Below are positions 4,285 through 23,521 of a stretch of DNA of 64,000 nt, piece by piece; positions within the stretch are counted from its first letter, which is position 1; every line of letters begins with the position of its first letter. Both the position numbers and the translations under genes were made by a program. The notes under the pieces were generated by a model that was not told the origin of the DNA, did not search any database, and worked only from the letters and a program-made list of their open reading frames with translations. Source of the DNA: a virus. The DNA is taken from UHGV virus genome UHGV-0200554; one strand, given 5' to 3'.

Positions 4285-4500
4285 TCATACGCTTCTCCTT
4301 GTTGCTCTTGCTACTTCAAAATAGTCTACATATCTTGATTCTTGCAGGATACGATAGCCTTCCCTATCTGCGTCTTCGATTGTGTGGAAGCGATCTCCAA
4401 GCTCCATACGCTCACCAGATTGTAAAACAATTATCAGCTTGTACATAGACCCTCCTTCATAATGCAAACTGATAATAGCACAGACAGGAGAAGGAGTCAA
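4285..4500 (-). CDS. hypothetical protein (71 aa)
   Basis: ORF in leftward block. Confidence 0.4.
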   Translation of the reverse strand: MTPSPVCAIISLHYEGGSMYKLIIVLQSGERMELGDRFHTIEDADREGYRILQESRYVDYFEVARATRRSV

Positions 4501-4742
4501 GCATAAACCGTGAAGAAAATAGATTATTTTCTGAGCAGTGAAGGTAAGGCTGGAAAAATTTTGGACAGCTCGCCGCTGGCGAGGAAATGTACAGACCCCC
4601 CCTAAAACGTAATAAGAGGGCCTGTAATGGGTTTTTAGGTTAGGGTAGGGTGTTTGCTCAAGTTCTTGCGAAAAATGCGTCAGAATTGCATCTAGGCCCC
4701 TTAAATTTGAAATCTGAGGTCTGTTTTTAGTCTTAGGGTCCT

Positions 4743-4958
4743 CTAAAAGTCCTCCCTTTCACGAAGTATTTTAGTGAACCCTTCAAGCCAGGTAGTGTCT
4801 GTGATCATATCAAGATCCTGTGCAAGTGCACGTCTGACGTTCCTTTTATGCACCGCAGTTAGTGTTACCCAAAAGTCCAGAGGCATGTTGGCTAGACAAG
4901 AATTGTCGAAAGGGTAATTATGCACCTTACCTTCAGAGCAGAGCACACTGAAATCCAT
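4743..4958 (-). CDS. hypothetical protein (71 aa)
   Basis: ORF in leftward block. Confidence 0.4.
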   Translation of the reverse strand: MDFSVLCSEGKVHNYPFDNSCLANMPLDFWVTLTAVHKRNVRRALAQDLDMITDTTWLEGFTKILREREDF

Positions 4959-5579: not shown

Positions 5580-5608
5580 AGATAAAGAAAAAGGGAGCCA
5601 AAGCTCCC
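5580..5608 (-). terminator. intrinsic terminator (GGGAGC-loop-GCTCCC + T-run on minus strand)
   Basis: Hairpin followed by TTTTTCTTT on minus strand, just downstream of gene 5615..5920. Confidence 0.5.
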
Positions 5609-5614
5609 TTCAGA

Positions 5615-5920
5615 TTATTCTGCTGAACGCTTGAAGAGGATATCAGTCTCTTCCATTGCGTCAACTTCGGCTTCCAGTTTCGCGCGACGTTTCTCTGATT
5701 CATATCTCTTATCGAATTCAGTAGCCACCAGTGACTTCAGGAATTTAGGAGAAATCAAGTGATCTTCTTTTTCCACCTTGATAATATCCTTCATTGCTTC
5801 CTTCATGTCTTTAATTTTCAACTGGAGATCAACCAGTTCTTCAACTGTTTTACGCAGACGTTCGCGTTCTGCTGGGTCAGCCGGAAGAGAAGTAAACAGT
5901 TCAACTTTAGTACGTGCCAT
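5615..5920 (-). CDS. hypothetical charged helical (coiled-coil-like) protein (101 aa)
   Basis: ORF; KE-rich heptad-like sequence. Confidence 0.5.
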   Translation of the reverse strand: MARTKVELFTSLPADPAERERLRKTVEELVDLQLKIKDMKEAMKDIIKVEKEDHLISPKFLKSLVATEFDKRYESEKRRAKLEAEVDAMEETDILFKRSAE

Positions 5921-5938: not shown

Positions 5939-6151
5939 TTAATCTAAAATGTCTACAATTTTGAAGTACTCTGGGCATTCGATTACATTCAGGCAGATGT
6001 AACGGCTATCACCATCGTCATCAATCGTATAGAAAGCTAACTCACCGTCAACAGCTGGATGGTGGACGACGTAACCATCGTAGATTCCACCTTTAGTGAA
6101 CCCCCAGTAATCACCGAGGCATTTCACTGCAAAGCAATCACCGTTTGTCAT
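5939..6151 (-). CDS. hypothetical protein (70 aa)
   Basis: ORF in leftward block. Confidence 0.45.
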   Translation of the reverse strand: MTNGDCFAVKCLGDYWGFTKGGIYDGYVVHHPAVDGELAFYTIDDDGDSRYICLNVIECPEYFKIVDILD

Positions 6152-6273
6152 TTCTTCAACTCCTCACGAATCCGGTCACAAACCACTTTCAGCAGATACG
6201 ACACCCCAGCAAGTATCCCGCCAAGTACAAGGGATACACCGAAGATCATCAATAGGACATAGATATCTACCAT
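6148..6273 (-). CDS. tiny single-pass membrane peptide (41 aa, MVDIYVLLMIFGVSLVLGGILAGVSYLLKV...)
   Basis: Hand-translated; fills gap between track ORFs; stop overlaps next start (ATGA); below track length cutoff. Confidence 0.3.
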   Translation of the reverse strand: MVDIYVLLMIFGVSLVLGGILAGVSYLLKVVCDRIREELKK

Positions 6274-6297
6274 GGAAACGTCCACAAGCCACCCCCC

Positions 6298-6555
6298 CTA
6301 TCGAATACCTTTCAGGATATCTTCAAGTTTATAGCCTTCGTCAATTGCATGGATAACTTCATCAGCTGTGTAGTAGTATTCTTTACACAAGCGGCAGGCT
6401 ACAAACAGTTCACCACGAAGTTCCAGACGGCTGATATCAAACTCACTGAAACCCTGTTTACGAAGTTCTATCTTACACCATTCTACGGCAACCTTGCAAA
6501 CAATAAACAGGATTAAGATTGCCAGAAGAATGGCGGTCAAAGTACTGACTACCAC
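6298..6555 (-). CDS. small N-terminally membrane-anchored protein (85 aa)
   Basis: ORF; hydrophobic N-terminus. Confidence 0.45.
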   Translation of the reverse strand: MVVSTLTAILLAILILFIVCKVAVEWCKIELRKQGFSEFDISRLELRGELFVACRLCKEYYYTADEVIHAIDEGYKLEDILKGIR

Positions 6556-6564
6556 AGAGTCCCC

Positions 6565-6648
6565 TTAGATTAGAATGATAAGTGCGATGACTGCTGCCGC
6601 TGTAATAGTTATTGTTCCTAAAAACAACTTCAGCATTTCTTTGTTCAT
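6565..6648 (-). CDS. tiny hydrophobic peptide (27 aa)
   Basis: Hand-translated; ATGA overlap with upstream gene stop. Confidence 0.25.
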   Translation of the reverse strand: MNKEMLKLFLGTITITAAAVIALIILI

Positions 6649-6953
6649 GATATAATCTCCAAAATTTCATAACGGTTAGGTTTGAATATGAAGGCTTCTT
6701 CTTTTTGGTATTTGCTTTTTATCTTCTTGCCCCCTTTTTCTTTACGGCAGAAATAACAAATGATAACGTTATCTCTTACCATGTGGAACAGGATATCTTC
6801 TTCTGTCAACCCACAGGTAGAAAGGTCCTCGTAGGAGAGTGCTTTAGCTACAGATTCTTTGGTTGGGGTTTCACCAACAACTTCGTCACCTTCGTGAACC
6901 CCGTACTCTGCCAAAGCATCTCCCACACCAATCAATCTAACTTTAACCAGCAT
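6645..6953 (-). CDS. hypothetical protein (102 aa), possible distant member of the small paralogue family
   Basis: ORF; C-terminus ...YEILEIIS. Confidence 0.45.
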   Translation of the reverse strand: MLVKVRLIGVGDALAEYGVHEGDEVVGETPTKESVAKALSYEDLSTCGLTEEDILFHMVRDNVIICYFCRKEKGGKKIKSKYQKEEAFIFKPNRYEILEIIS

Positions 6954-6967
6954 GGGAGAGTCTCCTG

Positions 6968-7240
6968 CTATTCAACGATTTCGTAGCAATCACTGCAAAC
7001 AATCATCGGGTCTGCTTCGAAGCCAGGGATATTTTCAAGAACGACCGCTTGGTTAAGAGTCAGCATAACCAGGAGAATACCAACATCTTCTTCTGCAACA
7101 CCTAAGCTAAGCAGTTCTTCTTTATTCGGGTAGTGTGCATCAAGCACAGCACCTTCTTTGATCATACCAGACGCTTCAACCATTCCTTTCATGTCACTAG
7201 GCATCATGCAGTCTTCAACTTTAGTCAGGCGAATTTTCAT
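6968..7240 (-). CDS. small acidic protein, paralogue family member (MKIRL...CYEIVE)
   Basis: Shares N-terminal MKI(K/R)L and C-terminal YE(I/V)VE with 7709..7981. Confidence 0.5.
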   Translation of the reverse strand: MKIRLTKVEDCMMPSDMKGMVEASGMIKEGAVLDAHYPNKEELLSLGVAEEDVGILLVMLTLNQAVVLENIPGFEADPMIVCSDCYEIVE

Positions 7241-7533
7241 TATTCGTCCTCCTCTTCTTCAACAACATCCCAGAAATCACCAGGGATAGCCAGACCTTTA
7301 TCTTCATCACCGTTTGGGAAAATGAAAACAACCCCTTCGAGGATCATCATCAGAGTGACCTGCTGTAATGCATCTTCACCAGGATCAGGATCTCCGTGAG
7401 AAGTGATCTCTTTCAACACATCTGCCGGACTTGGGACAAATGCATCATGAATTTCACCATCTTTGATACCGAAGATTTTTGCTGTTTCTTCGTCTACACC
7501 TTTAAGCACTACTTTAAAATCTGGTTGACGCAT
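7240..7533 (-). CDS. small acidic protein (97 aa), C-terminus ...DFWDVVEEEEDE
   Basis: ORF; acidic tail resembles paralogue family. Confidence 0.5.
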   Translation of the reverse strand: MRQPDFKVVLKGVDEETAKIFGIKDGEIHDAFVPSPADVLKEITSHGDPDPGEDALQQVTLMMILEGVVFIFPNGDEDKGLAIPGDFWDVVEEEEDE

Positions 7534-7600
7534 TGTGAGTACCTTTTGTAAAAGGGCACATCCGCTGTGCCGATGAGTTAGGGAGGTAACTGCAAGTTTA

Positions 7601-7705
7601 TCAGAGAAACTCTTTCAAAACTTTAGCTTGGGTGATCATAAAGACACCGTAAGCAAGAACTACAGGTGCTGTTACGACAGTTAAGAGATAAGCTACTGCC
7701 AACAT
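7601..7705 (-). CDS. tiny single-pass membrane peptide (34 aa)
   Basis: Hand-translated; GAGGAG RBS; tightly packed after 7709..7981. Confidence 0.3.
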   Translation of the reverse strand: MLAVAYLLTVVTAPVVLAYGVFMITQAKVLKEFL

Positions 7706-7708
7706 GCT

Positions 7709-7981
7709 TTACTCCTCAACTACCTCGTAGTTTTCAGGTAAAACAATCAGGTTTTCACCACTACCCGGGGCATCAAAAGTAGCCATACCTTCCGGCAGGT
7801 GCAGTTCAACCAAAGTGAGCAGAGCTTCACGTTCAGCTTCGCCCATACCTTCGAAAGTTTCGTCACCTAGGGCATCGCGAGCTACATCTTCCGGTGTAGG
7901 AATTTTAGCTTCTACGATCATACCTTCAGTCAGGCCGTGGATTGGATCAGCGATTTCAGTGTTCAGTAATTTAATTTTCAT
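7709..7981 (-). CDS. small acidic protein, paralogue family member (MKIKL...NYEVVEE)
   Basis: Paralogous to 6968..7240. Confidence 0.5.
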   Translation of the reverse strand: MKIKLLNTEIADPIHGLTEGMIVEAKIPTPEDVARDALGDETFEGMGEAEREALLTLVELHLPEGMATFDAPGSGENLIVLPENYEVVEE

Positions 7982-8107
7982 TAGAAGGTCCTCTTTTTGG
8001 GTAGAATTAATAGCCGTAGCCTAAGAAGTTAACAACAGCTATCAGGAAAATCATAACTAACAGACAAGCTATCTCTAAACGCATTACATGTTCTCTTTAG
8101 TTGGTAG

Positions 8108-8221
8108 TTATTTCTCTTGTTTGTAGTGTTCACGGAGGAGCTGGATTACAAAGTCCAGCCCTCCGATGATACCACAGACAAGGAAAGTATAGATGAGAAA
8201 CATTAAAATCATGTCGTACAT
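8108..8221 (-). CDS. tiny single-pass membrane peptide (37 aa)
   Basis: Hand-translated small ORF in inter-ORF gap. Confidence 0.3.
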   Translation of the reverse strand: MYDMILMFLIYTFLVCGIIGGLDFVIQLLREHYKQEK

Positions 8222-8347
8222 ACTACACCACCTTGCTGCTAGTGTCAAGTGCTTATTTGGAAAATAGGTGAATTATTTTTTACCTTTCCCGCCTTTGCCT
8301 TTGCCACCTTTTTTGCCACATGCCATACACAATCTCCAGTTAGTTAA

Positions 8348-8668
8348 TTAAAAGTGGCCTTGCGCTAGTTTAATGAGCGCATCTGCCATTTGACGAACCG
8401 CTTTGGCGTGTTCCAAAGGCGAAAGTCCGTCTTCAGGATCGAAGCGTAATGCTTCCATTACTGCTTTCAGTTCACCATCTTCCGCATGGATTTCACCACG
8501 TACCGGAAGTGCCCCAGGACACGATTGGTCCATACTTTCTTCAACGTAATCAACACCAGCGATAAGACCAAATGCACCGTTGTTGTCGATAACAAGTTCT
8601 TGTTTCATCTTGGCACCCTCTTTGTTTCGATGTGTGGTAACTATAACAGATTCAAATCGTGTTGTCAA
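8348..8668 (-). CDS. hypothetical protein (106 aa; true start may be the internal Met)
   Basis: ORF in leftward block. Confidence 0.45.
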   Translation of the reverse strand: MTTRFESVIVTTHRNKEGAKMKQELVIDNNGAFGLIAGVDYVEESMDQSCPGALPVRGEIHAEDGELKAVMEALRFDPEDGLSPLEHAKAVRQMADALIKLAQGHF

Positions 8669-9073
8669 CTACTTTTTAATCTCAATTTTGCCGTATGGAG
8701 GCATATCATCAAGATTACTGTTTTTAAGCATTGTAGCACAATTTTTATCTGGTGTCCACTGTTTTTTATCATTGTCCCAATAATAAGGAGATCTGCTATC
8801 AGGATGTTTAATTATAAACACTTCAGGTGCTGTTGTCAAGTCAATTTTTTCAAAATCTACGTGGACTTTACCATTAAACCCGCCACGTTGATATCCACGG
8901 TCGAAATTTGATCTTGCAAATAAATATCCGGCTAACCAGCCAGCAGAGACACCATCCCCCGCGATGGCGTAGCCAATTACACGTTTTCTCTTCTGGTGGT
9001 CATCCTCAACATCCCAGGCATCTTCCACCAGAGTAGTTATTTTATACAGATTCACCTCTGTGGGCCTCCTCAT
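8669..9073 (-). CDS. hypothetical protein (134 aa)
   Basis: ORF. Confidence 0.45.
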   Translation of the reverse strand: MRRPTEVNLYKITTLVEDAWDVEDDHQKRKRVIGYAIAGDGVSAGWLAGYLFARSNFDRGYQRGGFNGKVHVDFEKIDLTTAPEVFIIKHPDSRSPYYWDNDKKQWTPDKNCATMLKNSNLDDMPPYGKIEIKK

Positions 9074-12813: not shown

Positions 12814-13329
12814 CTATTTAAATTCTGCCATACTGCGGATCATCCGATCACGAGCTTTTCTGTGATGAGTACGCATACATTCTTCAAACACTCCAGAGAT
12901 AAATCTTGAAATGTAATCTCTTTCAGCTTTAGTTAGGAGTTCTTCCTCTTCTATTTCGACAGTTTTGTAAGCATATAGACCACATTCGTTGTAGCCTTCA
13001 TAATAATTCACAGCAATTTTAACAGGAAGATCATGACCTTCAAGGGTGAACGGTGTTAACCGACGCTCTGGGTGGCCTGTTTCCTCACCTTCAACAAAAT
13101 AAAGCGTATTATCATCGAACGCTTTGTCCATGCAAGCCACAAAAGCAGCTACTGCCTCAGAAACACCAGCGATAAAGTAAGCATATTTAGCTTTAGCCAT
13201 CATGATTTGATGACGTTTTACATCTGCTTCAGTGTGCTTTCCTGAAGCATAGTAATAATATGTGTGGATCTTATCCGGCGATACGTAAAAGTCTTCCCAA
13301 GTGTACAGTAGCTTGCTCATAGTGGTCAC
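12814..13329 (-). CDS. hypothetical protein (171 aa)
   Basis: ORF. Confidence 0.45.
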   Translation of the reverse strand: MTTMSKLLYTWEDFYVSPDKIHTYYYYASGKHTEADVKRHQIMMAKAKYAYFIAGVSEAVAAFVACMDKAFDDNTLYFVEGEETGHPERRLTPFTLEGHDLPVKIAVNYYEGYNECGLYAYKTVEIEEEELLTKAERDYISRFISGVFEECMRTHHRKARDRMIRSMAEFK

Positions 13330-13559
13330 TCCTCAACTATTTCGAACCCTAAACCGCCATGCTCTGGGAGCGGCAGAAGGGACATGTAGTAGGTATATCC
13401 GGGGGATATTCTTCCCTCTTTTGCACCTGCCTCTAATAAATCAACACCACGAATTATAACAATTGTCGGATCGGTTGTCAAGCGTTTACAGGGAACAATT
13501 TTGCCAACACAATCACAGAGGGATGGGTAACCGTGGTCGGTAAGGAATTTGACTTTCAT
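13326..13559 (-). CDS. small protein (77 aa), C-terminus ...FEIVEE, probable paralogue family member
   Basis: Shared C-terminal motif. Confidence 0.45.
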   Translation of the reverse strand: MKVKFLTDHGYPSLCDCVGKIVPCKRLTTDPTIVIIRGVDLLEAGAKEGRISPGYTYYMSLLPLPEHGGLGFEIVEE

Positions 13560-13600: not shown

Positions 13601-14011
13601 TTACTGAACTGTTTTTGGAGCTACCATTGACAATTCTTCAATAGCGAAGAGTTCGTTACCCACAATGATATCTTCTTTTTCGCAGTTTTCAGGGTCTTCC
13701 GCGTAAATCAGAGCTACTTCATCAAATTTACAACCGATGCGATTGCCCTTATTGTCTTCCATCTGCATACGAGGATGTTCAGTCATGCAGATGTATCCGT
13801 CTGTACCGACAGTACCTTCCATAGGTTCCTGACCTGCTACTAGGATCAGGATTGTTGCACCTTTAGGTACAAAACCCATCACCTGAACAGTGTCACCAAC
13901 AATACTTTCACCGAAATGAGTTTTCTCAAACATTGTGTCTTTCACCACTGTGGCGAATTCACCGTTCACTTCTTTCTTGCCGCTCTCACCTGTTACGATT
14001 TCGATTTTCAT
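13601..14011 (-). CDS. hypothetical protein (136 aa)
   Basis: ORF. Confidence 0.45.
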   Translation of the reverse strand: MKIEIVTGESGKKEVNGEFATVVKDTMFEKTHFGESIVGDTVQVMGFVPKGATILILVAGQEPMEGTVGTDGYICMTEHPRMQMEDNKGNRIGCKFDEVALIYAEDPENCEKEDIIVGNELFAIEELSMVAPKTVQ

Positions 14012-22462: not shown

Positions 22463-23521
22463 CTACTCCTTTAAACTGTACACCCAGGGTTTAAGTATCG
22501 TTTTTTCTATCTCTTTTACAGCTTCCTTGACACTACCGTTGTTACTTACAGTATAGTGCTCGGCACAGGTATTTGTCAAGGGTTTTCGTGAATCGTTTTC
22601 CCAGGTACAACCTTGTCTTTCGAGATGTATAACAATAACTCTGAACCCCGCGTCTATAAGGACCTGCGCCTCTTCTTCAAAACCTGAATCAGAGCACAAC
22701 ACCAGGTTGCACTTATCTAAACGTATAGAGTTAAGGGTAAACCTACCGAACCAATCTTTTCCGTATTTTGGTTTAACATACTCCTCACTTAAGAACTTGA
22801 ACCACTCCCTGTTGGTATATAATTTACCACAAAACTCTATGTGTGGGATCCTCTCTTTGAAATCCCTGTTGTCATAAAAAGTTTCAAGCCTTTTATACAT
22901 TTCCTTAGACAACAGTTTGCGGCTCCAGTACCATAAACCTGATTTAAAACTGGCCTTGAAATGGTGCAGCCTGAATGCGTTACATATAAAATCCTTGCCA
23001 GAGCCTGGAGGTCCATTTAGCAATACGACGGTTTTTATCTTAAGAGCATCCTCTGCAAAATCTCTAGCAAAAGCGGCTTCCTCAAAAGTATCATAGTTCC
23101 CTAGAAATATAGACCTGTTGCTGCCGTCACCTATTCTAGCACACCATTTGCTATTATGTTTGCTAAAAGTTACTCCAGTTTTACCGCTTGTGTTGTTCGA
23201 ATACTTATTGCACCGTTTAGCAGCGCTGTTGTTAAATGTTTTACTCGTGCATTCAAGATTCCACACATAGTCCCCTACGTGGACTCCGTGCTTGTGGTTT
23301 ATTACCATATCTTCTGACAAGGGATAGTAAAACATTTCCCAGATAATCCTATGCCTTTTATATCTTTTACCATTGTACCAAATTCTCCAGTAACCCTTTT
23401 TTCCCTCTGGGCCTCCTGCAAGATCACCTGCGTTATGACTAAACCTCCCTTTTTTTCCTTCAGTTGCCTCTTTCCAGTACAGCTTGCCTTTATCATATGT
23501 GAAAATATTATTCCAATCCAT
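22463..23521 (-). CDS. in-frame fusion: N-terminal HNH-AP2 homing-endonuclease-like domain + C-terminal T4 gp1-like deoxynucleoside monophosphate kinase
   Basis: N-terminal HNH-type His/Asn pattern and AP2 motif (YDTFEEAAFARDF); C-terminal P-loop LLNGPPGSGKD and gp1-like VIVIHLERQG...NNGSVKEA; no ATG/RBS at junction. Confidence 0.6.
   Translation of the reverse strand: MDWNNIFTYDKGKLYWKEATEGKKGRFSHNAGDLAGGPEGKKGYWRIWYNGKRYKRHRIIWEMFYYPLSEDMVINHKHGVHVGDYVWNLECTSKTFNNSAAKRCNKYSNNTSGKTGVTFSKHNSKWCARIGDGSNRSIFLGNYDTFEEAAFARDFAEDALKIKTVVLLNGPPGSGKDFICNAFRLHHFKASFKSGLWYWSRKLLSKEMYKRLETFYDNRDFKERIPHIEFCGKLYTNREWFKFLSEEYVKPKYGKDWFGRFTLNSIRLDKCNLVLCSDSGFEEEAQVLIDAGFRVIVIHLERQGCTWENDSRKPLTNTCAEHYTVSNNGSVKEAVKEIEKTILKPWVYSLKE

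Follow-up and report, generated by a model that had tools for sequence, protein, structure and literature searches.

The window analysed here is a stretch of 64,000 nucleotides of the virus genome UHGV-0200554. Its subject are four small open reading frames (ORFs) between positions 6645 and 7981, whose products are called D, C, B and A from upstream to downstream, and a fifth, distant ORF, E. A preliminary description of this DNA had located all five correctly and had joined them in one tandem family of small acidic proteins with common N- and C-terminal motifs. Judged from their sequences, D, C, B and A arose long ago as tandem paralogues within a single small cytoplasmic protein family. The same comparisons show E as a separate, very conserved family and not as a demonstrable member of the first. 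By its proteins the phage is an rV5-like (Vequintavirus-related) myovirus of about 139.6 kb, related to rV5 at the protein level only. The five genes, with length in amino acids (aa) and isoelectric point (pI), are:

7709-7981, minus strand: paralogue D, 90 aa, pI 4.1; orthologue of rV5 gp146 (54%); PHROG 11868
7240-7533, minus strand: paralogue C, 97 aa, pI 4.05, with an EEEEDE tail; orthologue of rV5 gp150 (32%); PHROG 12359
6968-7240, minus strand: paralogue B, 90 aa, pI 4.2; orthologue of rV5 gp151 (37%); PHROG 12155
6645-6953, minus strand: paralogue A, 102 aa, pI 5.4; orthologue of rV5 gp153/154 (35%); PHROG 12794
13326-13559, minus strand: ORF E, 77 aa; orthologue of rV5 gp127 (66%); PHROG 5009

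Local alignment scores were compared with those of 1000 composition-preserving shuffles. D and B, which had been said to align end to end, largely do so: BLASTP gives 27% identity over 74 of the 90 residues, and the local score of 68 stands against 28.2 +/- 5.3 for the shuffled sequences (z 7.5). For D-C and D-A the z values are 7.6 and 6.8, and in all three pairs the score was reached by none of the 1000 shuffles. B-C has a z of 4.4; A-B and A-C are weak when taken alone (z 2.1-2.8). When each paralogue was enlarged to a subfamily profile with relatives from large protein collections, hhalign returned probabilities of 71-92% in five of the six pairs among A to D (D-A 92.5%, D-C 89.7%, B-C 87.5%, B-A 77.5%, A-C 71%). 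Hidden Markov models (HMMs) built with one subfamily left out were searched against the 675 ORFs of the window. Each time the omitted member was the top ORF outside the training set (E = 1.3e-3 for A, 2e-8 for B, 1.9e-6 for C and 8e-7 for D), and the first unrelated window ORF appeared at an E of at least 0.26. The alignment of the family is coherent from end to end, with conserved G16, G20, A25, P28 and Y85, at a mutual identity of the paralogues of 22-27%. On the evidence of shuffles, hhalign and leave-one-out HMMs the proposed tandem family stands for the four members A to D, and it does not stand for E. Profile searches, which the preliminary description had named as the way in which its family could fail, find the relationship among A to D and none for E.

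The attribute acidic suits B, C and D (pI 4.0-4.2, net charge -11 to -18) and only weakly A (pI 5.4, net -3) and E (pI 5.6, net -2). Both terminal motifs together occur in just these five of the 456 six-frame ORFs of at least 40 aa; the motif patterns were devised after seeing the five ORFs and are not an independent test. PHROGs files the members as four unrelated families, all annotated as 'unknown function'; the profile comparisons show that they are one. The members were already catalogued as hypothetical proteins in rV5-like phages, the structural description given below is new. A 136-aa ORF at 13601-14011, which starts with MKIEIV and has a weak BLAST match to rV5 gp153, was rejected as an extra member (hhalign 0.3%). 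The 70-aa ORF at 5939-6151 (minus strand), orthologous to rV5 gp157, has YFKIVDILD at its C-terminal end, a strand which resembles that of the family; HMM searches gave no profile relation between this ORF and the family (E = 3.5-5).

An AlphaFold2 model of D was built on a 23-sequence family alignment and has a mean predicted local distance difference test score (pLDDT) of 89.7. According to DSSP its strands comprise residues 2-5, 22-26, 67-70, 77-80 and 85-89, with a 3-10 turn at 82-84; three helices (30-38, 40-45, 48-61) are placed between strands 2 and 3. The modelled fold of D is thus probably a five-stranded SH3-like barrel with a three-helix insert of about 35 residues in the position of the n-Src loop. 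The N-terminal MKIKL is strand 1 and the C-terminal YEVVE is strand 5 of the model, and the gaps of the family alignment are consistent with this fold. A BFVD search with the model matched only an rV5-type A orthologue (E = 1.6e-3, template modelling score 0.59). With SH3-like small barrels (SH3, KOW/Spt5-NusG, PsaE and the C-terminal domain of retroviral integrase) the D model shares five strands in SH3 order. As in these, strand 1 is followed by a long loop and the last strand is preceded by a 3-10 turn; the superposition covers about 49 residues, at 2.1-2.7 Å. It differs from them in the 35-residue three-helix insert which replaces the n-Src loop. Further, the family lacks the signature residues with which SH3 domains bind proline peptides, and its strong acidity speaks against a binding of nucleic acids as is typical for KOW, Tudor and Sm barrels. 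A beta-grasp fold of the ThiS/MoaD/ubiquitin type, suggested by size and the MKIK start, was discarded: neither the fold nor a C-terminal Gly-Gly was found.

Among D orthologues of at least 87% identity the insert is the variable part, with 20 of its 36 positions varying as against 11 of the 54 barrel positions (Fisher p = 8e-4). The residues conserved throughout the family, Gly16, Gly20, Ala25, Pro28 and Tyr85, are shown to be structural and not catalytic; a conserved polar cluster is absent.

Each paralogue has its own reciprocal 1:1 orthologue in rV5. Both rV5 and a third, uncultured lineage (L008) have the order D..C-B-152-A, in which a fifth member of the gp152 type sits between B and A. 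The window shares with rV5 the gene order and the operon context from the ORF142-like gene to the DsbA-like gene and terminator. It differs in the fifth member, which is missing, and in three neighbours: homologues of rV5 gp152, gp144 (the ribosome factor HPF), gp147 and gp148 were not found in the window. In the place equivalent to gp144 there is a 17-codon ORF, MACGKKGGKGKGGKGKK, at 8273-8326 (minus strand) which resembles the Gly/Lys tail of gp144 and may be a remnant of it. rV5 gp142 and gp149 are themselves paralogues (28% identity; L001 6614-7009 versus 4409-4807), each preceding a part of the array, and this type is single-copy in the window (8669-9073). The pair suggests that a segment was either duplicated in the rV5 line or deleted in that of the window.

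In several GenBank Vequintavirus records the D orthologues are labelled 'sigma 54 modulation factor', e.g., L007 2501-2770 (MN850576 ime_76). An HPF/RaiA identity of D was rejected, as neither D nor any of the 23 members matches PF02482 (Ribosomal_S30AE) at E <= 1. The true HPF gene of rV5 is gp144, two genes upstream of gp146, with a PF02482 match of E = 1.8e-12. What the gp146-type genes share with HPF/RaiA is the neighbourhood only, and by these profile matches the label is an annotation-transfer error.

A is the most irregular member in length. In the window it carries an 11-residue Lys-rich insertion, KEKGGKKIKSK (within 6700-6740), encoded by an A-rich tract; some close relatives do without it, the P0044 version among them. 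A has 102 aa also in L003, and 91, 90 and 91 aa in L004, L005 and P0044, respectively. The rV5 record DQ832317 splits the A orthologue into the overlapping ORF153/154 (L001 8026-8296). Other Vequintaviruses have an intact orthologue of 95 aa; a frameshift or a sequencing error in the rV5 record is likely.

By tblastn, D-, B- and C-type genes share one set of 118-119 phage records, with a single place in each; every record is Vequintavirus, some of them under the wrong label of 'Campylobacter phage'. When 1.84 billion representative proteins were searched exhaustively with the HMM, only 16 matches at E <= 1e-3 were returned; apart from family members the search produced one repetitive protein of 1812 aa, which was judged spurious. 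Locus searches with P0048 and P0053 on IMG/VR and metagenome contigs returned no locus. The family belongs specifically to Vequintavirus-like myoviruses; other phages occasionally have a single copy. One such copy, B-like and among the 16 matches, lies at L009 6001-6273 (ENA ERZ25038424 NODE_19) and matches the family HMM at E = 1.3e-10. The contig belongs to an unrelated phage which encodes DNA polymerase A and an Ead/Ea22-like protein. It suggests an occasional horizontal transfer of single members.

Ratios of nonsynonymous to synonymous substitutions (dN/dS) were computed against three related contigs. They are 0.14-0.40 for A to D (median 0.24), 0.135 for the neighbouring genes and about 0-0.04 for E; because of these values A to D and E are seen to evolve as coding sequence. 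DNA repeats in the region 5.5-14.5 kb consist of promoter copies and short similarities of coding tails, and no recent duplication was found. Since the orthologues keep the same order in rV5 and in the third lineage, the array is old and stable. The sequences indicate an ancient, stably inherited array under purifying selection which evolves somewhat faster than its neighbours. The preliminary description had spoken of diversified arrays. A rapid diversification is not supported: paralogues with 22-27% identity are ancient, their 1:1 orthologues have a fixed order in three lineages, and all four are under purifying selection.

At this point the possibility of an anti-defence set must be considered, in which each paralogue neutralises a different bacterial immune system, for instance by nucleic-acid mimicry or by sequestration of a sensor or effector. 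The faster evolution relative to the neighbours would fit, as would the concentration of the variation in one surface element, the apparent horizontal movement of the B-like copy into the DNA-polymerase-A phage and a copy number which varies by lineage, four here and five in rV5 and L008. The proteins are also small, acidic, encoded in an early region and without enzymatic motifs. Yet the distribution is core-like and not patchy, with the D, B and C types in the same records; the order has remained fixed in three lineages which have diverged to 30-55% identity; gene-wide positive selection is absent; and no publication was found which ties these genes to defence evasion. We consider an anti-defence set unlikely.

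ORF E had been included in the family because of its termini. Against A to D its shuffle z is at most 2.3, i.e., indistinguishable from shuffled sequence. None of the family HMMs recovered it at E <= 10 among the 675 window ORFs. Comparison of the family profile with the E profile by hhalign yields a probability of 1%, restricted to six C-terminal residues, and the best pair of E with any single A-D subfamily reaches 21%, at the N-terminus only. Hence E was removed. A model of E (pLDDT 92.6) is again an SH3-like barrel, with short helices at 12-17 and 38-43 and without the three-helix insert, and the E and D models have a common list of SH3-like matches.

The likeness of the termini has three explanations. 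Both folds, as modelled, are small SH3-like barrels which open and close with a beta-strand; Lys as residue 2 is common in these genes; and the Glu-Glu end of D, C and E is encoded by GAGGAG, where ribosomes also bind for the gene close behind. The three sites are:

7712-7717, minus strand: GAGGAG, terminal Glu-Glu codons of D and Shine-Dalgarno sequence of the 34-aa peptide gene
7249-7254, minus strand: GAGGAG in the tail of C, Shine-Dalgarno sequence for B
13329-13334, minus strand: GAGGAG in the tail of E, Shine-Dalgarno sequence for the next gene

In these tails, and in those of rV5 gp127, gp148, gp151 and gp152, GAGGAG stands 3-9 nucleotides upstream of the next start. At 16 of the 30 gene junctions of the operon the Shine-Dalgarno sequence falls within the coding part of the preceding gene, a good one precedes each of the five ORFs A to E, and the stop codon of C overlaps the start codon of B (TAATG). 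The tails of D and E are identical in 15 of 17 nucleotides. Because of the terminal strand and the embedded ribosome-binding site the shared acidic tail is no evidence of common descent; it is partly a translational signal. One observation weighs against this explanation: rV5 gp146 keeps Glu-Glu though no intact gene follows in that record, and therefore the ribosome-binding-site constraint is not the sole reason for Glu-Glu. The sequence after rV5 gp146 resembles a decayed copy of the 34-aa peptide gene.

One may still regard all five ORFs as one very divergent superfamily from which E has lost the helical insert. The motifs of the first and last strand are common to all five, and the array of rV5 contains an E-like gene between gp146 and gp150, namely gp147 (hhalign 53% to the E family). 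Against this, the sequence comparisons just reported give no signal, the secondary-structure elements between the strands come in a different order in the D and E models, E has a dN/dS of about 0 and relatives in unrelated 54-kb phages, and the embedded ribosome-binding site accounts for the common tail. A superfamily with E therefore appears quite improbable. The family status of A to D, its evolution and the exclusion of E, taken jointly, we hold with great confidence.

The transcriptional setting of the array is described by the following features:

8640-8668 and 8811-8839, minus strand: stronger sigma-70 sites farther upstream of the array, by consensus match
8220-8248, minus strand: candidate sigma-70 promoter TTGACA-17-TAGTAT, by consensus match, upstream of small membrane peptides, D, C, B and A
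7601-7705, minus strand: gene of a hydrophobic 34-aa peptide between D and C, conserved in relatives, dN/dS about 0-0.03
5590-5611, minus strand: hairpin resembling an intrinsic terminator, after the gene of a DsbA-like regulator (5615-5920)

In the block from 5 to 14.5 kb, 43 sigma-70-like sites were counted where 19.2 +/- 4.8 are expected, and each of the six best belongs to the coding strand. By synteny the block corresponds to rV5 genes 82-163, which the rV5 paper assigns to one unit with promoters of the E. coli type (sigma-70; PMC3606486), and rV5 has the annotated promoters P144 and P150 in this region. The block consists of small genes on one strand and its best sigma-70 sites are near-consensus, in support of the earlier interpretation. 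The hairpin at 5590-5611 is found where rV5 has its annotated terminator, behind ORF158, and is likely the end of the transcription unit which contains the array. Early or middle expression of the array is supported, not proved, by these signals. Perfect or near-perfect TTGACA-17-TATAAT promoters at 13453-13481, 8811-8839 and 8640-8668 (minus strand) make up a 31-nucleotide repeat family; the first is inside ORF E and the second inside ORF 8669-9073. A perfect hairpin, GGCACA-GCGGA-TGTGCC followed by CTTTTAC, is situated at 7555-7571 (minus strand) between the 34-aa peptide gene and C and could be a weak terminator or processing site; rV5 has promoter P150 annotated at the equivalent position instead. 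An Rfam scan found only a tRNA-Arg.

This setting bears on two further proposals. According to the first, the proteins act on the phage itself, as small adaptor or chaperone subunits for replication, the switching of transcription or assembly. The transcription unit of rV5 also holds replication and nucleotide-metabolism genes, the array lies just upstream of the conserved DsbA-like transcription regulator (76% identity to rV5 gp158), and strict conservation, fixed gene order and purifying selection over a long divergence are what such a role would predict. Nevertheless, four to five divergent paralogues with different surfaces are atypical of a single housekeeping role. No relative was detected in other rV5-like genera which have the replication and structural modules in common (879 records match the tape-measure protein, about 119 the family), and no partner can be named. 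On balance such a phage-directed role is improbable.

The second proposal views the proteins as virion-associated, packaged and delivered with the DNA. It derives from rV5 gp152, listed as a 'structural protein (MS evidence)', i.e., by mass spectrometry, in Table S3 of the rV5 paper (PMC3606486). That call is based on two peptides with 12.8% coverage and low scores as compared with hundreds to thousands of spectra for true structural proteins. gp146, gp150, gp151 and gp153 were not detected in the rV5 virion, and the genes are far from the structural module, behind sigma-70 promoters. A virion protein is thus most improbable.

Some neighbouring features may be recorded here. Tiny ORFs for hydrophobic single-helix peptides of 25-34 aa interleave the array at 7601-7705, 8010-8084, 8108-8212 and 6565-6648, all on the minus strand. 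The product of 8010-8084 matches rV5 gp145 ('membrane protein'), and the 27-aa ORF 3' of A (6565-6648) was not called in relatives. An independent gene caller gave the same ORFs of 90, 34, 97, 90 and 102 aa on a metagenomic scaffold of 139,560 bp (ENA ERZ28630675), on which the exact D protein is also present. The tape-measure protein of the window phage has 57% identity to Vequintavirus tape-measure proteins; other genes in the window encode a tail sheath, portal, NrdD, ligase and a ClpP-like protease. A megablast search of positions 6000-9000 against 50,697 phage records gave no nucleotide-level match. In the 352-aa frame at 22463-23521 (minus strand), residues 1-160 match an HNH endonuclease and residues 156-342 a deoxynucleoside monophosphate kinase; the frame is either a fusion or a homing-endonuclease insertion.

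What, then, may A to D do? Scans of the five proteins with Pfam and NCBIfam and a PDB sequence search gave no meaningful match, nor did a Pfam scan of all 23 alignment members; an Obg/DUF1967 match of A (E = 0.015-0.066) was below the cut-off and was disregarded. A literature search on the PHROG ids, the gp numbers, anti-defence and takeover in Vequintavirus, and BASEL Bas48-52 yielded nothing on these proteins. Host takeover or anti-defence, named in the preliminary description, is still a reasonable guess, to which the homology searches, structure matches and publications contributed nothing. T7 Ocr, T4 Arn and Ugi are acidic phage inhibitor or DNA-mimic proteins. The family is like them in being small, without enzymatic motifs and located in an early region, with B, C and D very acidic, a likeness of charge and context only. 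It is unlike them in that no PDB chain is matched by sequence and A is nearly neutral, and the searches gave no structural or sequence similarity to a known mimic or acidic inhibitor. Of the properties of B, C and D only the net charge of -11 to -18 would agree with a DNA-binding host protein as partner.

Our favoured reading is that A to D are non-enzymatic binders of distinct, probably basic or nucleic-acid-binding, partners in the infected cell. The proteins are small and lack catalytic motifs, B, C and D are strongly acidic, and a scaffold is joined with a variable insert; the reading is based on these features and on the context. Host-type promoters would drive their production early or midway through infection; the conserved barrel would serve as scaffold, the variable acidic helical insert and surface as recognition face; and each paralogue would bind a different partner. 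As to function this is tentative, somewhat short of even odds. Several points weigh against it. A is not strongly acidic in the window phage (net -3). The fold of A, B and C is carried over from their alignment to D, the sole member modelled. The variability of the insert could reflect weaker constraint instead of target recognition, and the timing of expression is read from promoter consensus matches and synteny. For the overall explanation, in which family, fold and function are blended, we estimate a probability of about 0.5.

A bolder version appears rather doubtful. It considers the paralogues, four here and five elsewhere, as an unrecognised class of phage effectors in which an SH3-like barrel bears a three-helix 'warhead', variable and acidic, and in which every copy blocks a different host nucleic-acid-binding or immune protein. 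Nothing in the analysis is mechanistically surprising; the family is real, but as phage gene families go it is fairly ordinary.

The consequences are nevertheless tangible. Four PHROG families of 'unknown function' and the gp152 type merge into one family with a confident structural model, which simplifies the annotation of about 120 Vequintavirus genomes and of uncultured relatives. A mislabel of gp146-type genes which was spreading among records is corrected here. In tightly packed operons GAGGAG biases C-termini towards acidic residues, and such tails should not be counted as homology. Vequintavirus-like phages are known for a broad host range. Vequintaviruses are used in phage-therapy and biocontrol cocktails, and four or five small acidic proteins are a tractable experimental target. 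If the effector reading were true, the array would be a conserved multi-target toolkit of Vequintavirus-like phages.

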